Source of the DNA: a bacterium
Lineage (GTDB): Bacteria > Patescibacteriota > Minisyncoccia > Phycocordibacterales > UBA5272
Direction of reading: 5' to 3'
DNA length: 64,000 bases
Assembly: GCA_027482685.1 (NCBI GenBank)
Contig: JAIXVU010000001.1
Coordinates: 11-64,010 of the forward strand
How positions within the stretch are numbered: position 1 is the first letter of the stretch; each line of letters begins with the position of its first letter. The notes below the pieces were generated by a model. That model searched no databases and had not been told where the DNA came from. It saw only the letters and a program-made list of their open reading frames with translations. Positions 8,665 to 59,382 of the stretch are shown in pieces. Position numbers and translations under genes: made by a program.

Positions 8665-8947
8665 CTTGTCGAAAAATCACTGCATCTACTTCTTTGTAAA
8701 GATTTTTTTGCTCCTGTGATGTACAACTTGTACATCTTAGTCTCAAAAAATCTATACGCCTCGTATCTACAGCATTTTTTCAACAAGTGAGTGGGGGATA
8801 AAATGTGTAACTCTTTCGTTACGTTTGTTACTCGCTCGTCAATGTACAAGTAAGTACAACTCCTCGCCCGCTCCTTCCTGATTAAGATTTGCATCATTTT
8901 CTGCTCTCGTTAGAATTTACTACTAACTAGTTTGCTATACTGTTTCA

Positions 8948-9622
8948 ATGAAATCTGTCATCACATTCTCTGAGATTCCTCCACATCATGCTGTGCTTAT
9001 GGTGCATAAAGAGAGAGGCGCCGTGGGCGCCTCTCTCTTTGACGAATTAAAAGAGTTGTCTCCGGTTCATAGATTCTTTGACCAGTCAGTTCTAGATATT
9101 GAGACAGCGAGATATATATCGTCGTGGTCTAACACTCCATACAGTGGAGAAAAAGTTGGGCTTATTTCCTTCAATACAGCTGGACTTGAAGCACAGAATG
9201 CTCTCCTTAAAGTTTTAGAAGAGCCAAGAGCAGGTGTACGCTTCATCATTATTACAACACACAGAGAGCACCTCATCCCAACAGTCTTATCAAGGCTTCA
9301 TCAGATGAATCTTACACAAGATGTTCTTCATGATGAGATGTATACAAAAGCTTACACATTTCTCACAACTCCAAAAGTTAACAGAATGAATCTCAAAGAA
9401 GTAAAATTGCTTCTTGAAGAAGAAGATGAAGAGGGACGCAAGAAACGCGAGTCCGTCAAGAGTTTTATCCTCGCACTTACTGATGTTTTGAAAACTGAAA
9501 ACAGTGAATCAAGATATATTCTTGAAACGTTAGAGTTCGCTTCATATGCATCTCGTCCTTCAACATCAGGCAAAGCGCTCATTGAGTACCTTGCTCTTCT
9601 ATTGCTAGAGATTAGAAATTAA
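8948..9622 (+). CDS. holB: DNA polymerase III delta' subunit-like clamp-loader protein (short form)
   Basis: AQNALLKVLEEP sensor motif and IPTVLSR, with no Walker A, fit delta'. 224 aa. An alternative TTG start is possible near 9055. Confidence 0.7.
   Translation: MKSVITFSEIPPHHAVLMVHKERGAVGASLFDELKELSPVHRFFDQSVLDIETARYISSWSNTPYSGEKVGLISFNTAGLEAQNALLKVLEEPRAGVRFIIITTHREHLIPTVLSRLHQMNLTQDVLHDEMYTKAYTFLTTPKVNRMNLKEVKLLLEEEDEEGRKKRESVKSFILALTDVLKTENSESRYILETLEFASYASRPSTSGKALIEYLALLLLEIRN
9008..9040. repeat. Palindromic hairpin aaagagagaggcgcc-GTGG-ggcgcctctctcttt embedded in-frame in the holB 5' region
   Basis: Core agaggcgccgtRggcgcctct is identical to the intergenic hairpin at 284-322. Here it encodes KERGAVGASLF inside the holB ORF. 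Confidence 0.6.
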
Positions 9623-12953: not shown

Positions 12954-13352
12954 TCAGACAGGTGAAGGTGTCCGTGTGAACATCTTCTTCTCTTCTTCGG
13001 TCACATCTCCGGGGATCTCGAACTCGTTATCGATCCTCTTGATACGGCCATCACACAGGCCGTCAACGTAGTCGAGGAGCTTCATCTCTTCCGACGTCTG
13101 ATCAGCAATGATCAGTCCGTAGAGGGCAGTTGAGTAGCTGAAGCTTAGCCCCCCGTTGCGTTCTTTTTCTCGATACGAAATCTTGTCGTGATTGATTCCG
13201 TCGAGTAGCAGCTTCTTGGCGAGTTCGTCACGTTGTTTCAGAACCTCGTCGAGACGGCGGCTAAGTATGTTCATTTGTTTGCTGTGACGCTTTTTGTTTT
13301 TCTTGAACGTGTATCGCCAAATCATGATGATGCCGATGTAGACGATGTGCAT
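12954..13352 (-). CDS. Hypothetical protein (132 aa), GC-rich with SD
   Basis: About 50% GC. AGGAG sits 6 nt before the ATG. No recognisable domain. Flanked by AT-rich core genes. Confidence 0.5.
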   Translation of the reverse strand: MHIVYIGIIMIWRYTFKKNKKRHSKQMNILSRRLDEVLKQRDELAKKLLLDGINHDKISYREKERNGGLSFSYSTALYGLIIADQTSEEMKLLDYVDGLCDGRIKRIDNEFEIPGDVTEEEKKMFTRTPSPV

Positions 13353-15307: not shown

Positions 15308-15466
15308 ATGTACTTTCGTTATAGTATCTATACTATTATTTTTTGTATAACATTATTTATTGATGTATTTTTAGGTGTTGCACGAGTACCAATCCTCACA
15401 CTCTTCTTTTGTGGTATAGTAGTCATATATGAAACTGTTTCGCCGTTTATCTACGTATCGCGCTAA
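15308..15466 (+). CDS. Small hydrophobic ORF (52 aa), possible MreD remnant
   Basis: One or two predicted TM helices at the position where mreD usually lies. Overlaps the mrdA start. Confidence 0.25.
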   Translation: MYFRYSIYTIIFCITLFIDVFLGVARVPILTLFFCGIVVIYETVSPFIYVSR

Positions 15467-17223: not shown

Positions 17224-17757
17224 TCATGGATTGATCCATTGAAGTTCATGAACCTCATTAAACATCACGATGTATATTGATGGATCATAATATATCCTGT
17301 TTATGCGTTTCGGAAAGTATGCTGATGTGCTCAGTATACTCACAGAACTGACCGTACCCCTGCATGCGCTTACTGTAAGTACTCGTGTATTTCCACTCTT
17401 TTGCTGTGAGGCTATGAGCGCACAATGCTTATTATCTACAAGAAGAGTACCTTCTGTAGATTCATTGTCGTTTAGATTTTCAAGAGCTTGTCTAGACATT
17501 TGAACTACAGATACACCACTTTTAACATCTGTATGTGTGCAATACGTACCAAATCGATTACACGATACAGTTTCTCGCACATTACCATGTCTGTGGTCTA
17601 TTATTTCAGTCTGAAGCCGTGGTAAAGGTCGGACTACCCGATGTGTCTCAAAACGCTCTATTCCTGTGAGCATATCAGTCACTTTGTACAAGGCGCTTTG
17701 TGCAAACACTACATGTGGCATGTTTGCAAGAAGTATCAAGAAAAGGTAAGCCTTCAT
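17224..17757 (-). CDS. Hypothetical secreted protein (177 aa), GC-rich with SD
   Basis: Signal peptide MKAYLFLILLANMPHVVFAQS. AGGAGAGAGCG precedes the ATG. GC content is above the flanks. Confidence 0.55.
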   Translation of the reverse strand: MKAYLFLILLANMPHVVFAQSALYKVTDMLTGIERFETHRVVRPLPRLQTEIIDHRHGNVRETVSCNRFGTYCTHTDVKSGVSVVQMSRQALENLNDNESTEGTLLVDNKHCALIASQQKSGNTRVLTVSACRGTVSSVSILSTSAYFPKRINRIYYDPSIYIVMFNEVHELQWINP

Positions 17758-17930: not shown

Positions 17931-18170
17931 TCAAGATTGACTTGTGATGAAGCAATGTGTTAGCCACATCGTCACATTGTATGTAACTGCGCCGTAGCAT
18001 CCAAGTTGAAGTCTCGTATCATCTCGTAACCAAAAATAACCAAGAACGACAAACCACACAAGAAATGAGATAAAGAGTACGTACTGTTCTGCATATCGTC
18101 CAGACAACAGTCCAAGTATGAGCATTATTGTGCAAAATTGGACATTAAAAAAGTCTCTTGCTCGGTCCAT
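17931..18170 (-). CDS. Small hypothetical membrane protein (79 aa)
   Basis: Two hydrophobic helices. Low-confidence gene. Confidence 0.3.
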   Translation of the reverse strand: MDRARDFFNVQFCTIMLILGLLSGRYAEQYVLFISFLVWFVVLGYFWLRDDTRLQLGCYGAVTYNVTMWLTHCFITSQS

Positions 18171-22555: not shown

Positions 22556-22873
22556 ATGAAAAAGCATCTAACACACGCACAATTTTTTGAAAAGACGGTC
22601 CATGCAATGCTTTTTACACTTTCTATAATTGCACTCGTATATTGTGTAGTGTTACTCTCACTCGTATTTTCTGTTATTGAACGTAAACAAAATATTATTG
22701 CATCTCGTGATCTTACATCACGTCTAAGTACTCTTGAGGCAACATACGCTAATACAGTAGCTTCTATCAATGATGCGAAGCTAGCAGAATATAACTACAA
22801 GCGTGTTGACGGGACTACATTTGCTGTACGAAAAGATTCGATTGCCACCTATTCTGTTCTTTATGCGCGCTAA
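22556..22873 (+). CDS. ftsL: Cell division protein FtsL-like
   Basis: 105 aa bitopic protein (TM LFTLSIIALVYCVVLLSLVF plus coiled coil) between rsmH and ftsI. Confidence 0.65.
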   Translation: MKKHLTHAQFFEKTVHAMLFTLSIIALVYCVVLLSLVFSVIERKQNIIASRDLTSRLSTLEATYANTVASINDAKLAEYNYKRVDGTTFAVRKDSIATYSVLYAR

Positions 22874-24620
22874 GAGGAATAATCCTACACCTCAACTCAC
22901 CGAAGACCAAAAGCTACGCTCGATAGATAGAGCAGGTATCGTTATCGGCGTGTTTTTTTTAGTCGGTATGGTTATCCTTGGAAAAGCTTTTTATATACAA
23001 GTTATTAATCACAAGCATTACACAGAGCTTGCTGATAAACAATATATATCCTTGACAGGAGGAGGGTTCGACCGAGGGGCTATATATTTTGCACACTATA
23101 AAAATGAGCCGGGTATTGCAGCTGAGCTTCGTAGTGTCTATCGTATCGCTGTTAATCCTAATCAGATAACAGATAAGGAAATGGTATACAAAGAATTGTC
23201 ACAGCATATTGATATAGATAAAGATGACTTCATGACAAGAGCCTCAAAGCAAAATGATCCGTATGAAGAAATTGCTAAGAATGTGAGTGAGGAAGTGGTT
23301 AAGAAGCTTCGAGAAAAAAATTTGGTTGGCATTTCATACATAAAAGAAAATAAACGTGCATATCCACAAGATGAAGTCGCTGCGTCTACTATTGGATTTG
23401 TCGGTAATGATGGTACTCGTGTGCGCGGGCAGTACGGAGTTGAGAGATACTATGACGATGTGTTATCTCGTGTAGCGAGTAATCGACGTGTTAATTTTTT
23501 TGCAGAACTTTTTACTAATATAGAAAAAACTATTGCGTCAAATACTGACATGATGGAAGGAGATGTCATGCTCACTATAGATGTCGAAGCACAACGCGCC
23601 CTTCATAACATATTGGTAGAGACTAGAAATCAGTGGAAATCAGATACAATTGGTGGCATCATCATGGACCCAAAGACTGGTGAGATTGTTGCCATGGACT
23701 CTCTCCCATCATTTAACCCTAATGACTTTAGTGGCGTAGAAGATACAAGTGTTTTTGTTAATCAGAATGTATCAGGTGTATATGAGATGGGGAGTATTAT
23801 TAAACCTCTCACTATGGCGGCAGCCTTTGATAGCGGTGCTGTTACATTAGAGACAACGTATAACGATACAGGTATTCGAGAGCTAAATGGGTATAAGGTA
23901 AAGAACTATGATAGCCAAGCGAGAGGTCCTAACACCACCATGCAGACAATACTTGATAAGTCACTTAACGTTGGTATTGTTTTTCTAGTAGAGCAGTTAG
24001 GTATCAAACGTTTTGCAGAATATTTTAACAATTTCGGTATCGGAGAAGAGACTGGCATTGATCTTCCAAATGAAGCAAAAGGATTGAGTAAGAATCTTAA
24101 GAGTGGAGTCTTGGTTGATAGTGCTACAGCTGGATTCGGTCAGGGGATTGCTATTACTCCGATACAGACAATACGCGCGCTTGGTGCATTAGCTAACCAC
24201 GGCAAGCTAGTTACACCTCATGTTGTAAAAAGCATAGTGTACAAAAATGGTACTGTGAAAAAAATAGTCCAAGACGAACAAGATCAAGTTATCAGTGAAA
24301 AAACTAGTGAAGCTGTTTCTCGTATGCTTGTGCATGTTGTTGATACATCACTTAATAAAGGCACATTAAAAATGGATGGTTACAGTATTGCTGCAAAGAC
24401 CGGTACCGCCCAGATGGTAAAGCCAGGCGGTGGATACTATGAAGGTAGATATCTCCACTCGTTCTTTGGATATTTTCCAGCGTATGAGCCTAGGTATATT
24501 GTTTTCTTATTCCACACGTATCCTAAGGGTGCTGAGTATGCATCTGCAACACTAAGTGAGCCATTTTTCAAAATCGTAAAATTCTTGATTAGCTACTACG
24601 AGATACCACCAGATAGATAG
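22863..24620 (+). CDS. ftsI: Penicillin-binding protein FtsI/PBP3-type transpeptidase
   Basis: TM anchor, PBP dimerisation domain and SIIKP (SxxK), SLN and KTGTA motifs. Overlaps the ftsL stop by 11 nt. Confidence 0.88.
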   Translation: MRAKRNNPTPQLTEDQKLRSIDRAGIVIGVFFLVGMVILGKAFYIQVINHKHYTELADKQYISLTGGGFDRGAIYFAHYKNEPGIAAELRSVYRIAVNPNQITDKEMVYKELSQHIDIDKDDFMTRASKQNDPYEEIAKNVSEEVVKKLREKNLVGISYIKENKRAYPQDEVAASTIGFVGNDGTRVRGQYGVERYYDDVLSRVASNRRVNFFAELFTNIEKTIASNTDMMEGDVMLTIDVEAQRALHNILVETRNQWKSDTIGGIIMDPKTGEIVAMDSLPSFNPNDFSGVEDTSVFVNQNVSGVYEMGSIIKPLTMAAAFDSGAVTLETTYNDTGIRELNGYKVKNYDSQARGPNTTMQTILDKSLNVGIVFLVEQLGIKRFAEYFNNFGIGEETGIDLPNEAKGLSKNLKSGVLVDSATAGFGQGIAITPIQTIRALGALANHGKLVTPHVVKSIVYKNGTVKKIVQDEQDQVISEKTSEAVSRMLVHVVDTSLNKGTLKMDGYSIAAKTGTAQMVKPGGGYYEGRYLHSFFGYFPAYEPRYIVFLFHTYPKGAEYASATLSEPFFKIVKFLISYYEIPPDR

Positions 24621-24639
24621 TTCTTGTGCACTAGACAAA

Positions 24640-24917
24640 AACTAAAAAACGTTGTAGTATATTTCCATACTGTTGTTTTGTCCAAGAAAGGTGTAAGCAA
24701 TGAAAGAAAGAAAATCACTTCCCACTCTGTCTCTTGTCGCGTGGATGAGAGTGCGATTTGCGAGGTTCGATCCGCCAACATACGGCGAACTGTGGGTCAG
24801 AACTCTTCTCTTTCTGTCTTCACGTTTGAGAAGCCTTTCTCTCAGGCTCGAACGCGCTGCAAAAAAGCACAAGTGACGAAGTGAAAAGGCCGTACCCACG
24901 TTGTGGGTACGGCCTTT
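24640..24917 (+). ncRNA. Candidate structured ncRNA or cis-regulatory leader (about 270 nt), family unknown
   Basis: GC-rich block (about 50%) in an AT-rich genome with no credible ORF on either strand. Contains a tRNA-T-loop-like GGTTCGATCC. Ends in a strong hairpin aaaggccgtaccc-acgttgt-gggtacggccttt 26 nt before the photolyase ATG. Confidence 0.4.
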
Positions 24918-24942
24918 CCTACAATGCTATACTATTGCAATC

Positions 24943-26373
24943 ATGGTTAACCCTGTACGTGTACAAAAAATCACCGAAAAAGATTACAGTAATGGCACTG
25001 TTATCTACGAGATGTGTCGCGAGCTACGCGCGCATGATAATGACGCACTGCTTTTCGCTCAGGATCTTGCAAAAAGTAATGGGTGTAAGCTTGTAGTGCA
25101 CTACCGTATCTATAACTATCTTTGGCAAGGTGCAACCGCACGCTTTTACGACTGGGTCATAGCATCTCTTAAAGAAGTTGAAGCAACACTCCGTGTGCAT
25201 GCTATCCCTCTTGTGATTATCTTCGAAGATAACAAGTTGTACGCACGTGATACTAAGATATCTCATATACCTCATGATACTGGCGCAGTAGTGATAGAAG
25301 AGATACCGCTACACTTTGCTCGCAAGTGGAAAGATATCTATCTCGCTCATCACAATACTATTCCACTCTATGAAGTCGATGCGCGTAACTGTATTCCAGT
25401 ATGGGAGTTGTCACATAAGCAGGAATTTGCAGCTCGTACAATCCGCTCAAAAGTACACGCGAAGTTAGGAGGGTACCTAGAAGAATATGACAAACTTACC
25501 ACACATACCGCAAATGCTGATCTGCTCACAAAGATGCAACCGATAGATTGGAATGATATTCGCAAAAAGATTATATGTGATGAATCCGTAGCTGAAGTTG
25601 ATTGGATACATGCAGGTGAGAAGGCCGCTCATAAGCAACTCACTCACTTCCTTTCAGAAAAGTTACAAGAGTATGATGAGTCTCGCAATAGTATCAACAT
25701 TGATGGTCAGAGTAACCTCTCACCATACATATCTCATGGCAATATTTCACGTCGACGTATTGTACTAGAGTTACTTAGGACAACTGGGGTGGAGATTCGT
25801 AGTGCGTTTGATCCAGTACAGAATGGCTCAAACGGGAAGTTGGGTAGTATCGCAGCATTTATCGAAGAGTGCGTAGTGCGAGCAGAACTCTGTGAAAACT
25901 TTTGTTACTACAACCACGCGTATGATAAGGTCACAGGCTTTCCAGCGTGGGCAAAGGAGACGCTTGACGCTCATAAACATGACGCGCGAGAGTATACGTA
26001 TACATATAAGCAATTAGAAAAAGGAGAAACTCACGACAGGTTATGGAACGCTGCACAGTTACAAATGGTGCAGACTGGTAAGATGCATGGGTACATGCGT
26101 ATGTACTGGGCAAAGAAAATACTAGAGTGGACCAAGTCCCCAGAGGATGCTATGAAGTTCGCAGTGAAGCTAAACGATACCTATGAGCTAGATGGACGAG
26201 ACGTTGGCGGGTATGTTGGATGTGCATGGTCAATAGGTGGCGTGCATGATAGGCCGTGGTTCACGCGTCCGATATTCGGTACTATTCGCTACATGGCAGT
26301 AAGTGGCGTTGAGAAACGTGGTAGTATAGAAGAATATATAACGAAGTTCGCTTCTCCTCCAAAACTTGTATGA
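24943..26373 (+). CDS. phr: Deoxyribodipyrimidine photolyase, class II CPD photolyase
   Basis: Class II photolyase C-terminal FAD-binding signature GYMRMYWAKKILEWT...GGYVGCAWSIGGVHDRPW...IRYM. Confidence 0.85.
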   Translation: MVNPVRVQKITEKDYSNGTVIYEMCRELRAHDNDALLFAQDLAKSNGCKLVVHYRIYNYLWQGATARFYDWVIASLKEVEATLRVHAIPLVIIFEDNKLYARDTKISHIPHDTGAVVIEEIPLHFARKWKDIYLAHHNTIPLYEVDARNCIPVWELSHKQEFAARTIRSKVHAKLGGYLEEYDKLTTHTANADLLTKMQPIDWNDIRKKIICDESVAEVDWIHAGEKAAHKQLTHFLSEKLQEYDESRNSINIDGQSNLSPYISHGNISRRRIVLELLRTTGVEIRSAFDPVQNGSNGKLGSIAAFIEECVVRAELCENFCYYNHAYDKVTGFPAWAKETLDAHKHDAREYTYTYKQLEKGETHDRLWNAAQLQMVQTGKMHGYMRMYWAKKILEWTKSPEDAMKFAVKLNDTYELDGRDVGGYVGCAWSIGGVHDRPWFTRPIFGTIRYMAVSGVEKRGSIEEYITKFASPPKLV

Positions 26374-27344: not shown

Positions 27345-27384
27345 AACTTCCGTACTTGGCGACCTTTTTTGTAGAAATTTCTAA

Positions 27385-27415
27385 TTCATTCGTCAATGTA
27401 GGTTCACTACACCTC
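27385..27415 (+). repeat. Diverged copy of the 3'-UTR repeat element (tcaatgtaggttcactacacctcctcat)
   Basis: Shares the tgtag-gttNa-ctaca hairpin with the copies at 32557 and 37972. Located 40 nt after the methyltransferase stop. Confidence 0.4.
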
Positions 27416-27578
27416 CTCATGAATTTTCGTTTCCCCTCAAATCTCTTCCAGGTATGAAAGTTTTAGTAATGTGTGGTGAACTTCCTTGAATTTCATCTAA
27501 TTTCTAAACTTTTCAATTCCAGTTTATTTATAATTCTCGCGAAAATAATTCTATGCTACACTAGAAAAATATAAAAAT

Positions 27579-28902: not shown

Positions 28903-28981
28903 TTTTGGGATATTTGTGGTTGAGTCTACATATTAAATAGACACTTTAGCAGCAGTCTAACTATTTTCTCTGGTATACTGC

Positions 28982-29713
28982 TTGCATATGGATAGACATC
29001 CCGAAATTATCGAGACGACACCAACGATTGGCAACGTGCAAGAACTCCCTCAGGATGTTCCAACACTTCAGGCTGAGGTATTGCGCCTACGAGAGGAAGT
29101 GAGACGTTTACAAGAAGAGGCACTCACAGATAGTCTCACAGGGTTACCTAACAGACGTTACGCTGACCAAGAGATAAAAACTCTTTTCGCCCAAAGAGGG
29201 AGAAATGAGATAGACTCATTCAGTGTTATTGCATTTGATCTAGATGGTTTCAAGGCGATCAATGACAAAGGTGGACACCTCGCAGGGGATGAATGTCTCA
29301 AGATTGTCGCAGAGGAGATCCGGAATACATTACGAACTACCGACTTCTTCGCACGCGAAGGAGGGGATGAGTTTCTTATTTTCCTACGTAACGAGCCACA
29401 TGCAACAACAGTTGCTGAGAATGTGCTCAAGAGAATGAATGACAACGTAACCACAAGGTTACGCGAGTATACAAAGGACGAAACGTCCTGGATATCAGCA
29501 AGTATTGGTCTTGTAACGATAGCAGATGATAGTAGCTTGCGAGGTATCACATCATCAAAGGATGTGCTTACTCAGGCAGACTATGTGAGGTATGTGGTAA
29601 AGGCAGCTGGTAAAAAAGGAGTCTTCACCCTCGAGCAAGCCCGCGAGGTAGACACAGACGGCAGATACTGGAAGCAATTTGTGGAGAATAAAATAGGGAA
29701 GGTCTCAGTGTAA
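28982..29713 (+). CDS. Diguanylate cyclase (GGDEF domain) with N-terminal coiled coil
   Basis: LTGLPNRRY, DLDGFKAINDKGGHLAGDECL and the canonical active site REGGDEFL. Confidence 0.85.
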   Translation: MHMDRHPEIIETTPTIGNVQELPQDVPTLQAEVLRLREEVRRLQEEALTDSLTGLPNRRYADQEIKTLFAQRGRNEIDSFSVIAFDLDGFKAINDKGGHLAGDECLKIVAEEIRNTLRTTDFFAREGGDEFLIFLRNEPHATTVAENVLKRMNDNVTTRLREYTKDETSWISASIGLVTIADDSSLRGITSSKDVLTQADYVRYVVKAAGKKGVFTLEQAREVDTDGRYWKQFVENKIGKVSV

Positions 29714-29855: not shown

Positions 29856-30198
29856 TCAGTCATCACTTAGGATATGAAATGAGTGACATGACCTCGCGAT
29901 GAAGGGGATCTCACCCTTTAGTTGTGCGAGCTTACTCTCGGCAACATCGCGTTGCTTGTAGCAGGCGACAACCTGAAGTTCGCCTCGTAGCATCGCAGTT
30001 ACAATAGCGCACTCGAGATCTCGCATCGTGATATCGAGTATCCTCGCAACACGCTCAGCGTGTATGGTGAGGAAGATTATCCTTTCATTTCTGAAGCAAC
30101 GACATACAAAGAGTGCTATACGGACTTCAGGTGGCTCTTTTTGTTGTTCTCTGATATCTGAGGCGGGCCTATGCACCTTATCTGGAGTAGCATACATC
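29856..30198 (-). CDS. Hypothetical protein (about 114 aa), GC-rich with SD
   Basis: ATG chosen at MYATPDK, preceded by GGGAGAAG; the longer ORF starts on TTG. Transcribed divergently from the RhuM-Fic gene. Confidence 0.45.
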
Positions 30199-30309
30199 AG
30201 ATCTTCTCCCGTAATGTAATGAGCAATGCACAAATACTACAACGATTATTGCCCCATCGTCAACTATAGCGGGCAAGGGTATTATTACTTTATCCACAAA
30301 ATATTGAGG

Positions 30310-31454: not shown

Positions 31455-32552
31455 ATGTCTCTCTCTATCGGAATCGTCGGCCTACCAAATGTTGGTAAGT
31501 CAACACTATTCAATGCTATCACCAAGAAATCTGTTCCAGCAGATAACTATCCGTTCTGTACCATTGATCCATCAGTAGGTATCGTTCCTGTACCAGATGC
31601 ACGTCTAGAAGTCCTCTCAAAAATTTCTAGTTCAAAGAAGATAATCCCAGCTATCGTTGAGTTCGTCGATATTGCAGGACTAGTAAAAGGTGCAAGTGAA
31701 GGGCAAGGACTAGGCAACCAATTCCTCTCACATATTCGTGAGACAGATGCAATTGCTGAGGTGGTACGTATCTATGAGAACGGTGACCTCATCCACGTAG
31801 AAGGGACAGTTGACCCGCTTCGTGATATCGAGATCATCAATATGGAGCTCATACTAGCTGATATGTCTACGGTTGAGAAGCGTATACAGACTATCGGTCG
31901 TGATGTAAAGCGTGGGGATAAGGATGCTATAAAACTAGACGAGCTACTCAAGCGTCTGAAGAGTCACCTAGAAGAAGAAAAACTCGCCAACAGACTATCG
32001 CTTGATGAAGAAGAGAAGCGACTCGTGAAAGAACTTCATTTGATCACGATGAAACCTTTTCTCTATGTACTCAACAAGCAATCAGGTGGCAAGAACCTAG
32101 ATGAAATGGGGGACGATAGATTTACCAAGCTAATAGCGTATTTCAAAGAGCATAACTTCCAGTATGTGGTGGTAGATGCCAAGATAGAAGATGAGCTCAA
32201 AGAGTTTGAAGGCGAGGAGAAGGAAATGATGCGTGCTGAGCTCGGCGCGCATGATAATGGAGTAGATGGACTTATCAAAGCCGGATATGATCTTTTAGGC
32301 CTTGAGACATACCTCACCACAGGGGAGATGGAGACACGTGCATGGACTGTAAAAAAGGGGAGTACCGCACCAGTAGCAGCTAGTGCGATACACACGGACT
32401 TCGAGCAGAAGTTTATACGCGCAGAAGTTGTTGCGTATGATGACCTTGTGAAGGCAGGAGGCTTCGCGGAAGCAAAGTCACAAGGTGTACTACGGACAGA
32501 AGGGAAGGAGTATATTGTTCACGACGGTGACGTCATCGAATTTAAGATATAA
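31455..32552 (+). CDS. ychF: Ribosome-binding ATPase YchF (Obg-family GTPase fold)
   Basis: GIVGLPNVGKSTLFNAIT P-loop, DIAGLVKGASEGQGLGNQFL and the C-terminal TGS domain. Confidence 0.92.
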   Translation: MSLSIGIVGLPNVGKSTLFNAITKKSVPADNYPFCTIDPSVGIVPVPDARLEVLSKISSSKKIIPAIVEFVDIAGLVKGASEGQGLGNQFLSHIRETDAIAEVVRIYENGDLIHVEGTVDPLRDIEIINMELILADMSTVEKRIQTIGRDVKRGDKDAIKLDELLKRLKSHLEEEKLANRLSLDEEEKRLVKELHLITMKPFLYVLNKQSGGKNLDEMGDDRFTKLIAYFKEHNFQYVVVDAKIEDELKEFEGEEKEMMRAELGAHDNGVDGLIKAGYDLLGLETYLTTGEMETRAWTVKKGSTAPVAASAIHTDFEQKFIRAEVVAYDDLVKAGGFAEAKSQGVLRTEGKEYIVHDGDVIEFKI

Positions 32553-32556
32553 ATTA

Positions 32557-32665
32557 CCCCATCTACTTTGTCGCTACGAAATTTTCCTCAGTCATCGTAG
32601 GTCTACTACGACTCTTTCAAAAATTTCTAAGCTTCGCATATCTGAGGCAATTTCTATCTTAAATC
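32557..32665 (+). repeat. 3'-UTR repeat element copy A (catctactttgtcgctacgaaattttcctcagtcatcgtaggtctactacg...tctgaggcaattt)
   Basis: Starts 5 nt after the ychF stop. About 75% identical over about 105 nt to the element after alaS. Contains the hairpin cgtag-gtcta-ctacg. Confidence 0.6.
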
Positions 32666-32853: not shown

Positions 32854-33159
32854 ATGGAAAATTCAACCGAAGAGTCCAATGTCCATGCAGGAAACGTTGA
32901 CAAGACACCTGCATTTCTCGCATATGAGTTTGCCGTCAAGCTCGTACAAGAACATGGGTTCCCAACGACTGACCCGCTCGTTGCTTACCTCTACGCAGAT
33001 GAGATGATGACGAGCTTGGTAGCGTTCAAGGACCTCTGTGTGGTCTTGGAATTTGCGGAGGGTCTTCCTAAAACAATTCCAGACCTGTTTCATATCAAGC
33101 ATCTTGAGAAGATGAAGCAGGCACTCGAAGATAAACAATCCAATAAAAAATCCTCATGA
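32854..33159 (+). CDS. Hypothetical protein (101 aa), GC-rich with strong SD
   Basis: GGAGGT lies 6 nt before the ATG. About 47% GC. Private terminator. Lies just after the duplicated repeat element. Confidence 0.5.
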   Translation: MENSTEESNVHAGNVDKTPAFLAYEFAVKLVQEHGFPTTDPLVAYLYADEMMTSLVAFKDLCVVLEFAEGLPKTIPDLFHIKHLEKMKQALEDKQSNKKSS

Positions 33160-36073: not shown

Positions 36074-37966
36074 ATGTCACTCACCGTAAATCAAATTCGC
36101 ACCAAATTCCTAAAATATATGGAAAGTAAAGGCCATGTTGTTGTTCCATCAGCGTCTCTTGTTCCTGAGAACGACGCAACAACACTTTTCACTGGTTCTG
36201 GTATGCAACCGATGGTGCCGTATCTCCTGGGACAGCCACATCCGCTTGGTGTTCGTATCACAGACTCACAAAAGTCATTCCGTTCACAAGATATCGAGGA
36301 GGTGGGAGACAATCGCCACACAACATTTTTTGAGATGTTAGGCAACTGGTCATTCGGTGATTATTTTAAAGAAGAACAAATTAGGTGGATGTGGGAGTTC
36401 CTCATTGATGAGCTTAAACTTGATCCTAATAACTTTTATATCACGTGTTTTGCAGGTAATGAGTCACTTGGCGTCAAGCGAGATACGTTCTCTGCAGAAT
36501 TATGGCAGAAGCTTTTTGCGCAGAAGGGTATTGATGCAAAAGTGAGCGATACACCAGAGAGTGGAATGAAAGATGGCGAGAAGATTTTCTACTACAATGA
36601 AAAGAAAAACTGGTGGTCACGTAGTGGAGTACCTGCTAACATGCCAGAGGGAGAACCTGGCGGACCAGATAGTGAGATGTTCTATGATTTTGATGCAACT
36701 GGTCAACAAAAGATTCACGAAACGAGTGCATGGAAGGATGTGCCGTGCCATGTGAACTGTGACTGTGGGAGATTCCTTGAGATAGGGAATAATGTATTCA
36801 TGCAATACAAGAAAGTTGCTGGAGGGTTTGAAGAACTACCACAGATGAATGTGGATCATGGGTCGGGGCTTGAGCGTTACGCAGCGGCACTACGTAATGA
36901 TCCAGATGTTTTCAATATCGACGTGTTTGATGAACCGAAGAAGATGATTGAGCGTTTGAGCGGAAAAGTATATGGTGAGTCAACAGAGGTAACCTACGCA
37001 TATCGTGTTGTGCTCGACCACATTCGTGCGGCAGTATTTCTTATTGGTGATGGAGTGTTGCCAGGGAACAAGGATCAGATGTACTTTGTACGTAGACTTC
37101 TTCGTCGCGCGGTACGATTTGCTCGTAACTTGGGCGTGCATGATAATTTTACTCGAGAAGTTGGAGCTTCTTTTATTCAAACATATAAGGTAGAGTACAC
37201 GCTGCTTGAAGAAAAGAGACAGGTGATTTTAGATGAACTCGAAAAAGAAGAGATGAAGTTCCGCAAGACTCTTGAGAATGGAATAAAAGAGTTCGAGAAA
37301 ATAGCAGATAAGAATATTAGTGGAGTAGATGCATTTAACCTCCTTCAGTCATTTGGGTTCCCAATCGAGCTTACAGAAGAGTTAGCAAAAGAACGTAATA
37401 TTACAGTTGATAGAGTATCCTTTGATGAAGAAAAGAAAAAACATAGTGAAGAATCTCGTACAGCAAGCGCTGGGAAGTTCAAAGGAGGACTAGGAGGGGA
37501 CGGTGAGATGGAGGTTAAGTATCATACCGCAACGCATTTGCTTCATGAGGTACTTCGCCAAGTGCTCGGTGATCATGTACTGCAGAAGGGAAGTAACATT
37601 ACATCAGAGCGATTACGATTCGACTTCTCTCACGGCGAGAAGATGACTGATGAGCAGAAGAAGCAAGTAGAAGATATTGTGAACAAAGTCATTGCAGATG
37701 ATTTACCTGTTCACCGCGAAGAAGTGAGTTATGATGAAGCTCGTGCACGAGGGGCAATAGGAGTGTTTGATGCAAAGTATGGCGATACGGTATCTATCTA
37801 TACCGTAGGTCGTGAGACTGGTACACGTGGTGGAGCGAATCTCTTCTCACTTGAATTCTGTGGTGGTCCGCATGTAGAGCACACAGGAGTACTCGGAACC
37901 TTCAAGATTACAAAAGAGGAGGCGGTATCAGCCGGTGTTCGCCGGATCAAAGCAATTTTATCCTAA
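36074..37966 (+). CDS. alaS: Alanyl-tRNA synthetase, C-terminally short form (630 aa)
   Basis: AlaRS catalytic N-terminus (FTGSGMQPMVPYLLG, WSFGDYFK). Editing-domain metal site HTATHLL...H and CGGPHVEHTG. Lacks the C-terminal C-Ala/DHHA1 region. Confidence 0.88.
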   Translation: MSLTVNQIRTKFLKYMESKGHVVVPSASLVPENDATTLFTGSGMQPMVPYLLGQPHPLGVRITDSQKSFRSQDIEEVGDNRHTTFFEMLGNWSFGDYFKEEQIRWMWEFLIDELKLDPNNFYITCFAGNESLGVKRDTFSAELWQKLFAQKGIDAKVSDTPESGMKDGEKIFYYNEKKNWWSRSGVPANMPEGEPGGPDSEMFYDFDATGQQKIHETSAWKDVPCHVNCDCGRFLEIGNNVFMQYKKVAGGFEELPQMNVDHGSGLERYAAALRNDPDVFNIDVFDEPKKMIERLSGKVYGESTEVTYAYRVVLDHIRAAVFLIGDGVLPGNKDQMYFVRRLLRRAVRFARNLGVHDNFTREVGASFIQTYKVEYTLLEEKRQVILDELEKEEMKFRKTLENGIKEFEKIADKNISGVDAFNLLQSFGFPIELTEELAKERNITVDRVSFDEEKKKHSEESRTASAGKFKGGLGGDGEMEVKYHTATHLLHEVLRQVLGDHVLQKGSNITSERLRFDFSHGEKMTDEQKKQVEDIVNKVIADDLPVHREEVSYDEARARGAIGVFDAKYGDTVSIYTVGRETGTRGGANLFSLEFCGGPHVEHTGVLGTFKITKEEAVSAGVRRIKAILS

Positions 37967-37971
37967 AATTA

Positions 37972-38072
37972 CTTCATCTACTTTGTCGTTACAAAACTTT
38001 TTCAGTTCAATGTAGGTTTACTACATCTCATTAAAAAAGTTTCTAGACTCCTCGTATCTAAGGCAATTTTAA
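37972..38072 (+). repeat. 3'-UTR repeat element copy C (after alaS)
   Basis: catctactttgtcgttacaaaactttttcagttcaatgtaggtttactacatctc...tatctaaggcaatttt. Hairpin tgtag-gttta-ctaca carries compensatory changes relative to copy A. Confidence 0.6.
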
Positions 38073-38098
38073 GACAAAATAATTCTTGAATAAAAAGA

Positions 38099-57068: not shown

Positions 57069-57099
57069 CGGCTCTTCTTGCATGGTACACTAGTATCAT

Positions 57100-57834: not shown

Positions 57835-57854
57835 GATGATATACTAACTCTACT

Positions 57855-59333: not shown

Positions 59334-59382
59334 AATAAGAAGTGTATAACCTAAAAACGCTCATGATATACTAATATTTACT

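Follow-up and report, generated by a model that had tools for sequence, protein, structure and literature searches.

Small RNAs such as CpxQ, SroC, and DapZ of enterobacteria are derived from the 3′ untranslated region of an mRNA and share its terminator. Terminator-type riboswitches, for which the FMN and THF types are examples, lie between the promoter of the regulated gene and its start codon, and intrinsic terminators are stable GC-rich stem-loops 3′ of a gene on the same strand, with arms carrying an A-run and a T-run in the bidirectional type. With respect to transcription without a leader, the sequence criterion is a −10 box ~6–10 nt before the start codon together with the lack of a Shine–Dalgarno site, a Pribnow box so placed being a recognised signature of leaderless transcription (PMC6028130). 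Leaderless-mRNA promoters have been described for the "group C" bacteria of GeneMarkS-2, such as Actinobacteria and Deinococcus (PMC6028130).

The locus compared here with these systems belongs to a Parcubacteria/Paceibacterota (CPR) metagenome-assembled genome, for which the closest species-level genomes encode an FtsI that is ~48% identical. The whole stretch analysed, of 64,000 nucleotides and termed the window, is part of a contig on record both at NCBI and in the Logan run SRR16126875. Its + strand carries, in this order, mraZ, rsmH, ftsL, ftsI, a photolyase gene, a methyltransferase gene, and a DsbA-like gene, and relatives keep this order; the interval separating ftsI from the photolyase gene is termed the slot. 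In the window, the slot is a 322-nt spacer (24621–24942) within which the source's gene caller placed zero genes. An earlier note on this DNA had singled out the GC-rich part of the spacer (hereafter the block) as a candidate RNA element. The features discussed below are as follows:

22803–24620, + strand: ftsI, with which the mraZ-rsmH-ftsL-ftsI cluster ends; its product has PBP dimerisation and transpeptidase domains
24621–24884, + strand: spacer body, apparently untranslated, with ~51% GC in 24714–24884 and without a coding signature, homologue, conserved counterpart, or significant structure
24700–24876, + strand: 58-aa ORF starting with ATG and having AAAGGTG 6 nt upstream, missed by the earlier note and judged not to be a gene
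24764–24773, + strand: GGTTCGATCC, similar to a tRNA T-loop by chance and lacking a flanking stem
24885–24917, + strand: GC-rich 15-bp hairpin without mismatches, its ends formed by an A-run and a T-run
24925–24933, + strand: extended −10 promoter TGCTATACT of the photolyase–methyltransferase operon, 9 nt before the ATG
24943–26373, + strand: photolyase gene (PF00875), with its ATG at 24943 and no Shine–Dalgarno site

Overall, the spacer is probably a lineage-specific, non-coding 3′ tail of the mraZ–ftsI transcript, situated in a hypervariable slot and followed by a constitutive terminator and a leaderless photolyase promoter. It would then combine an ordinary terminator, a leaderless promoter that is ordinary for this genome, and non-conserved filler, and would be of little importance in itself.

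The hairpin at 24885–24917 and the photolyase promoter

The arms of the hairpin, AAAGGCCGTACCCAC and GTGGGTACGGCCTTT, occupy 24885–24899 and 24903–24917 and enclose a 3-nt loop; 9 of the 15 pairs are G-C, and the hairpin folded alone reaches −27 kcal/mol. The earlier note had described a 13-bp hairpin ending 26 nt before the photolyase ATG. The hairpin is real, but it comprises 15 bp (13 bp with a 7-nt loop in the earlier pairing), and its 3′ end lies 25 nt upstream of the ATG. As a stable GC-rich stem-loop 3′ of the same-strand ftsI, it is a putative intrinsic terminator, resembling the bidirectional type in its GC-rich perfect stem with AAA...TTT ends, and intrinsic terminators in general in its location between a gene and the promoter that follows. 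It differs from them in the 3′ flank, which consists of UUU only, followed by CCU, and in its distance from the upstream stop codon. The hairpin is missing from the list produced by a simple terminator scan because only three U follow the stem, and the efficiency of termination at this short tract is uncertain. Several other gene-end hairpins of the window likewise carry the T-run inside the stem.

At least 10 stop codons in the window are followed, 4–40 nt downstream, by a long perfect hairpin with A-rich 5′ and T-rich 3′ ends, and several of these hairpins stand between convergent genes. The hairpin at 24885–24917 shares their design but starts 265 nt downstream of the ftsI stop, a distance that counts against the reading favoured here; perhaps a feature formerly had, or still has, its end immediately upstream of it. 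No other strong hairpin was found between the ftsI stop and 24885, and transcripts of the mraZ cluster are therefore expected to cross the block and end at 24885–24917. Transcription of mraZ-rsmH-ftsL-ftsI would thus continue past the ftsI stop through ~264 untranslated nt, with the spacer body forming the putative 3′ untranslated tail of the ftsI transcript and the 15-bp hairpin acting as a constitutive intrinsic terminator that would also protect and stabilise the 3′ end.

Elsewhere in the window, a perfect 15-bp GC-rich hairpin of terminator type (9008–9040) lies 60 nt inside the ORF 8948..9622. The ATG of this ORF is preceded, at a distance of 6 nt, by a textbook TGCTATACT box. This hairpin could be an intragenic attenuator, a sign of a mis-set gene boundary, or a coincidence.

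The photolyase promoter box starts 7 nt downstream of the hairpin and is the single site found when both strands of the spacer were scanned for TGnTAnAnT. Its TATACT hexamer occupies 24928–24933. The presence of this −10-like hexamer had been recognised earlier, with a distance of 11 nt to the ATG that is corrected here to 9 nt. When the upstream regions of 65 window genes were aligned for promoter and Shine–Dalgarno signals, a TANANT box ending 5–12 nt before the ATG was observed in 18 of them, nearly all at 6–9 nt, with the two positions of a preceding TG occupied by T in 12 and by G in 14 of the 18. No −35 consensus was detected upstream of these 18 boxes, and an SD-like 4-mer at the right distance was present in 8 of the 65 genes, which is about the chance level. 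Examples of extended −10 boxes in the window are located at 8933–8947, 15412–15428, 28971–28987, 57083–57099, 57837–57854, and 59364–59382. Furthermore, among 10 photolyase relatives with 62–68% identity and the conserved start M-(x)-VNPLR, a TATACT, TACACT, or similar box lies 6–9 nt before the true ATG in nine.

The photolyase gene itself shows the arrangement expected for leaderless transcription, that is, TGCTATACT, then 9 nt, then ATG, with no Shine–Dalgarno site. The −10 spacing and the absence of a Shine–Dalgarno site seen in this gene, in its relatives, and in many window genes are the same as in the group C promoters, from which the present ones differ in their extended −10 box (TGnTATACT), in having no recognisable −35 element, and in their Parcubacteria host. 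Judging from these sequence features, the photolyase mRNA would be leaderless or near-leaderless: the mRNA of the photolyase–methyltransferase operon would start at, or within ~3 nt of, the AUG and would be translated without a leader, as appears to be common in this genome. A side remark of the earlier note, that TATACT could make the operon leaderless, is supported by the operon's own promoter downstream of the hairpin and by the retention of its placement in relatives. The same features suggest that the mRNAs of this Parcubacteria genome are predominantly leaderless, and given the many extended −10 boxes 6–9 nt from start codons and the scarcity of Shine–Dalgarno sites, short "leaders" in this genome should not be taken for regulatory RNAs. 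Since the terminator would end upstream transcription and the operon has its own promoter after it, the hairpin would insulate the photolyase promoter and would not regulate the photolyase gene.

On the − strand, a sigma-70-like site, TGGACA-17-TATACT (24684..24656; 10 of 12 positions), points antisense toward the 3′ end of ftsI. It has neither a downstream start codon nor a downstream terminator, and it is without the TG of the genome consensus; it is probably a chance match.

A quite different role for the hairpin had been proposed in the earlier note, namely that of a terminator-type riboswitch or attenuator that would govern read-through to the photolyase–methyltransferase operon in response to, for example, flavin or folate. 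The 25 nt between hairpin and ATG would suit such an element, as would the flavin and folate cofactors of photolyase, a link that is the earlier note's idea and not a test. The proposal is nonetheless hardly credible, being contradicted by the downstream promoter, the uncontested terminator stem, and the relatives that lack the block. A riboswitch is placed between promoter and start codon, whereas the only genome-type promoter of the spacer is 3′ of the hairpin, with its 6–9-nt placement kept in relatives without the block; with a leaderless promoter of its own, the operon would therefore have no leader in which a riboswitch could reside. No riboswitch family matched at E ≤ 10. The fold analysis suggested earlier, of alternative terminator and antiterminator structures, showed nothing that competes with the terminator stem: there is no antiterminator, forbidding the terminator costs 27.4 kcal/mol, the best upstream complement to the stem is 6 bp long, and in the fold of 24667–24902 (up to the loop) the 5′ arm of the hairpin is unpaired. 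In four relatives the slot measures just 16–89 nt, and no conserved aptamer precedes the orthologous photolyase genes, whose spacers of 16–1095 nt are unlike the block. Thus, the locus is similar to the FMN, THF, and other terminator-type riboswitches in that the gene for a flavin/folate enzyme is closely preceded by a hairpin, but differs from them in lacking an aptamer match and an alternative pairing, in the position of the promoter, and in the absence of the block from relatives.

Coding capacity, composition, and origin of the spacer body

The block contains ORFs of 86 aa (+ strand) and 85 aa (− strand), and the earlier statement that no plausible ORF is present holds, with no coding signature and no homologues found for either. 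Searches of Pfam and PHROGs with the translations of four block ORFs gave no match except noise at E = 0.095, and the 58-, 85-, and 86-aa translations had zero homologues among 5.8 billion protein clusters and 1.84 billion representatives (HMMER, exhaustive). By codon log-odds trained on 40 long window ORFs, real genes scored +0.30 (sd 0.10) and the block ORFs −0.15 to +0.02. Real window genes have GC1, GC2, and GC3 values of ~0.5–0.59, ~0.35, and ~0.32–0.40, respectively; all block frames are flat in these values (~0.44–0.50), and hence without codon-position periodicity. Past its TAG, ftsI is continued in the same frame by the 86-aa ORF, which was also considered as a read-through extension and rejected, because relatives stop at the same PPDR-stop (the C-terminal end ...PPDR-TAG being shared with them) and because its codon score is the worst of the candidates.

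The 58-aa ORF could in principle be a real small protein gene that uses AAAGGTG for ribosome binding and the hairpin for termination. It begins with ATG, has this SD-like site 6 nt upstream, and ends with a stop codon 9 nt before the hairpin. AAAGGTG counts for little, because SD-like 4-mers are at chance level here and Shine–Dalgarno sites are hardly used in this genome. The codon log-odds of the ORF (−0.07) falls below the 5th percentile of 58-codon chunks of real genes (+0.11), and its GC1/2/3 values are flat. Moreover, its product is rich in R, L, and S and has no homologue and no Pfam or PHROG match, a promoter is absent upstream, and the ORF was omitted by the source's gene caller; its being a gene is very improbable.

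With respect to composition, the GC content is 40.4% for the window, 44.7% for the whole spacer, and 52% for 24714–24917, which ranks in the top 0.3% for GC among 204-nt windows. The ~50% GC noted earlier for the block is thus real for the 3′ two thirds of the spacer, but the surrounding 37% of that description is not, and ~15 further stretches of the window also reach at least 50% GC. No tandem duplication was found within the block, and a second copy that would indicate a MITE or other repeat is absent from the window. Three other GC-rich stretches (50–56%) of the window, at 12954–13352 (−), 29856–30233 (−), and 32854–33159 (+), are small orphan ORFs of 132, 125, and 101 aa, respectively, with atypical codon usage (score ~0) in two of the three; they are probably recently acquired genes. 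In addition, 17224..17757 (−) and greA are separated by an otherwise empty 500-nt gap in which a 79-aa hydrophobic ORF (17931–18170, −) may encode a small membrane protein that has escaped annotation.

The ftsI–photolyase slot was compared among relatives, where its length ranges from 16 to ~1100 nt and its contents are unrelated:

L013: slot of 16 nt, no content
L012 and L092: slot of about 78 nt, no content
L007: slot of 89 nt, no content
L095: slot of 531 nt, containing a terminator hairpin and, on the − strand, a 110-aa membrane ORF that had not been called
L008: slot of 1058 nt, with two orphan genes
L093: slot of 1095 nt, with a 260-aa orphan gene
L096: contig beginning within the slot, with a 188-aa gene upstream of the photolyase gene

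The comparative alignment of the spacer that had been suggested earlier thus gave no similarity to the block in slots of 16–1095 nt, and the ftsI–photolyase junction is a hypervariable slot. The uncalled ORF of L095 (2545–2877, −), strongly hydrophobic and convergent with ftsI, has a GC-rich hairpin (2513–2540) in common with that gene and probably encodes a small membrane protein.

The block was found in one genome only. When the window and 105 related loci were searched with blastn, nhmmer, and tblastx, only the block itself was returned, and the same was true of a single-sequence covariance model of its predicted fold (R1) run over the window and 627 kb of related loci. Phage and plasmid collections searched in distant mode yielded nothing meaningful for the block, and four exact block patterns had zero matches in IMG/VR. 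Regarding strain variants, exact look-ups of neighbouring proteins placed the organism in only four runs, all from one study, with no further contig that spans the spacer. A metagenome scan with a photolyase alignment, based on overly general peptide patterns, recovered mostly relatives of 42–48% identity and added little on the spacer.

These observations bear on where the body came from. Two in-register frames on opposite strands are open for 87 and 85 codons, as occurs in ~1% of dinucleotide shuffles, and pure drift explains neither this pair of frames (at least 85 codons each) nor the GC content in the top 0.3%, both of which weigh against the favoured reading. The paired frames are compatible with a decayed former gene, and it is possible, if doubtful, that the body is the remnant of an orphan protein gene that once stood in the slot together with its terminator, an origin compatible with the favoured 3′-tail reading. 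Such a remnant would be in keeping with the orphans of 155, 75, 260, 188, and 110 aa in the slots of relatives, which are mutually unrelated, and with the identity of other GC-rich stretches of the window as small orphan genes; two stops in + frames, 1 and 9 nt before the hairpin, would also restore the usual distance from stop codon to terminator. The body, however, resembles neither any protein nor the genes in the slots of relatives, even residually, and lacks codon-position periodicity.

RNA families and folding

Rfam 15, whose families include SRP RNA, 6S RNA, tmRNA, RNase P, tRNA, riboswitches, and sRNAs, gave no match to the spacer at the gathering score, the only hit in the window being a tRNA at 1–63. 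Even at E ≤ 10, the check that the earlier note had suggested, no family matched, and the spacer gave only hairpin-driven noise far below threshold. Nor did ARAGORN find a tRNA or tmRNA in the spacer. A tRNA-T-loop-like motif had been pointed out, and GGTTCGATCC is indeed present, but it does not form a T-arm, which is defined by GGTTCGANNCC and a 7-nt loop closed by a stem of 5 bp: the pattern failed because the block reads GGTTCGATCCG, the flanks of the motif (CGAGG and CGCCA) cannot pair, and the motif is instead paired with GCTCGAAC (24845–24853) in the MFE fold.

The fold z-score of 24660–24920 on the + strand was −4.4. Without the hairpin, it was −1.1 for 24667–24884 and −2.2 for the best-chosen core, 24714–24884, with −2.2 being reached by 5% of 79 windows of 171 nt chosen arbitrarily from this sequence; the − strand values for these two segments were +0.5 and −0.8. 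The z-score of −4.4 comes from the hairpin, and the body is ordinary for this genome. Of the properties expected of a free-standing sRNA gene—its own promoter, a fold beyond chance, and conservation—the block shows none. The proposal of an SRP RNA, 6S RNA, or novel sRNA therefore fails on the lack of an Rfam match, a body fold at about the chance level, the lack of a genome-type promoter, and the lack of conservation, and the block is probably not a discrete functional RNA, lineage-specific non-coding filler being the most likely description.

A lineage-restricted sRNA of ~200–250 nt on the + strand, either transcribed from its own weak promoter or cut from the ftsI 3′ UTR and sharing the terminator at 24885–24917, is unlikely, and is considered at all because the stop-to-terminator distance is anomalous and the GC content high for an AT-rich genome. 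A weak promoter-like site, TAGACA-17-TAGTAT (24632–24660), and the terminator would bracket ~250 nt; promoter hits of this kind are at chance level (2 found vs 1.9 expected), and this one does not match the TGnTAnAnT consensus. Immediately 5′ of the terminator, a closing helix (CACUUCC/GGAAGUG) forms in the MFE fold, and several CU-rich tracts are single-stranded, but the body folds no better than shuffles or arbitrary windows. No Rfam family matches, and none of the syntenic relatives contains the block, nor do the 627 kb of related DNA. Still less likely is the narrower case of a structured sRNA, restricted to this lineage and arising from or behind the ftsI mRNA, that shares the ftsI terminator and might act via the CU-rich tracts. 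With sRNAs of the CpxQ, SroC, and DapZ type, the likeness is in layout only, that is, in a long untranslated tail ending in the operon terminator; the block differs from them in having no conservation, no seed-like conserved stretch, and no internal promoter. If it were such an sRNA, it would be among the very few candidate regulatory RNAs proposed for the reduced, episymbiotic CPR bacteria.

An element of ~120 nt at gene ends

Apart from the block, AU-rich long imperfect hairpins of ~120 nt were observed in the window and in relatives, starting −8 to +5 nt from a stop codon and lying on the same strand as the gene:

Window, five copies: 8668–8790, 8794–8912, 27346–27467, 32545–32665, and 37960–38081
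Relative L008: 2941–3062 and 8260–8380
Relative L011: 2405–2525 and 1–49
Relative L096: 4560–4724

Their conserved motifs are AAATTAC..CATCTACTTTGT, a central GTAC/GTAG stem, and CGCCTCGTATCTA.AGCAATTT. Rfam holds no match for this element. The block was tried as a further copy and rejected: with filters off, a covariance model of the element (R2) matches only the generic terminator stem of the block, at 10 bits and E = 0.13. True copies score 80–123 bits with R2 on the strand of the gene vs 35–46 bits on the other (110–123 bits on the + strand vs 35–46 bits on the − strand), and in the RNAalifold consensus compensatory changes occur in 23 of the 39 pairs. The element could be a clade-specific terminator, a 3′-UTR element, or a REP/MITE-like repeat, and it merits follow-up more than the block does. 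It occurs at orthologous positions in different genomes, namely after the methyltransferase gene, after a 75-aa gene, and after ftsI, and the ftsI–photolyase slots of L008 and L011 contain it.
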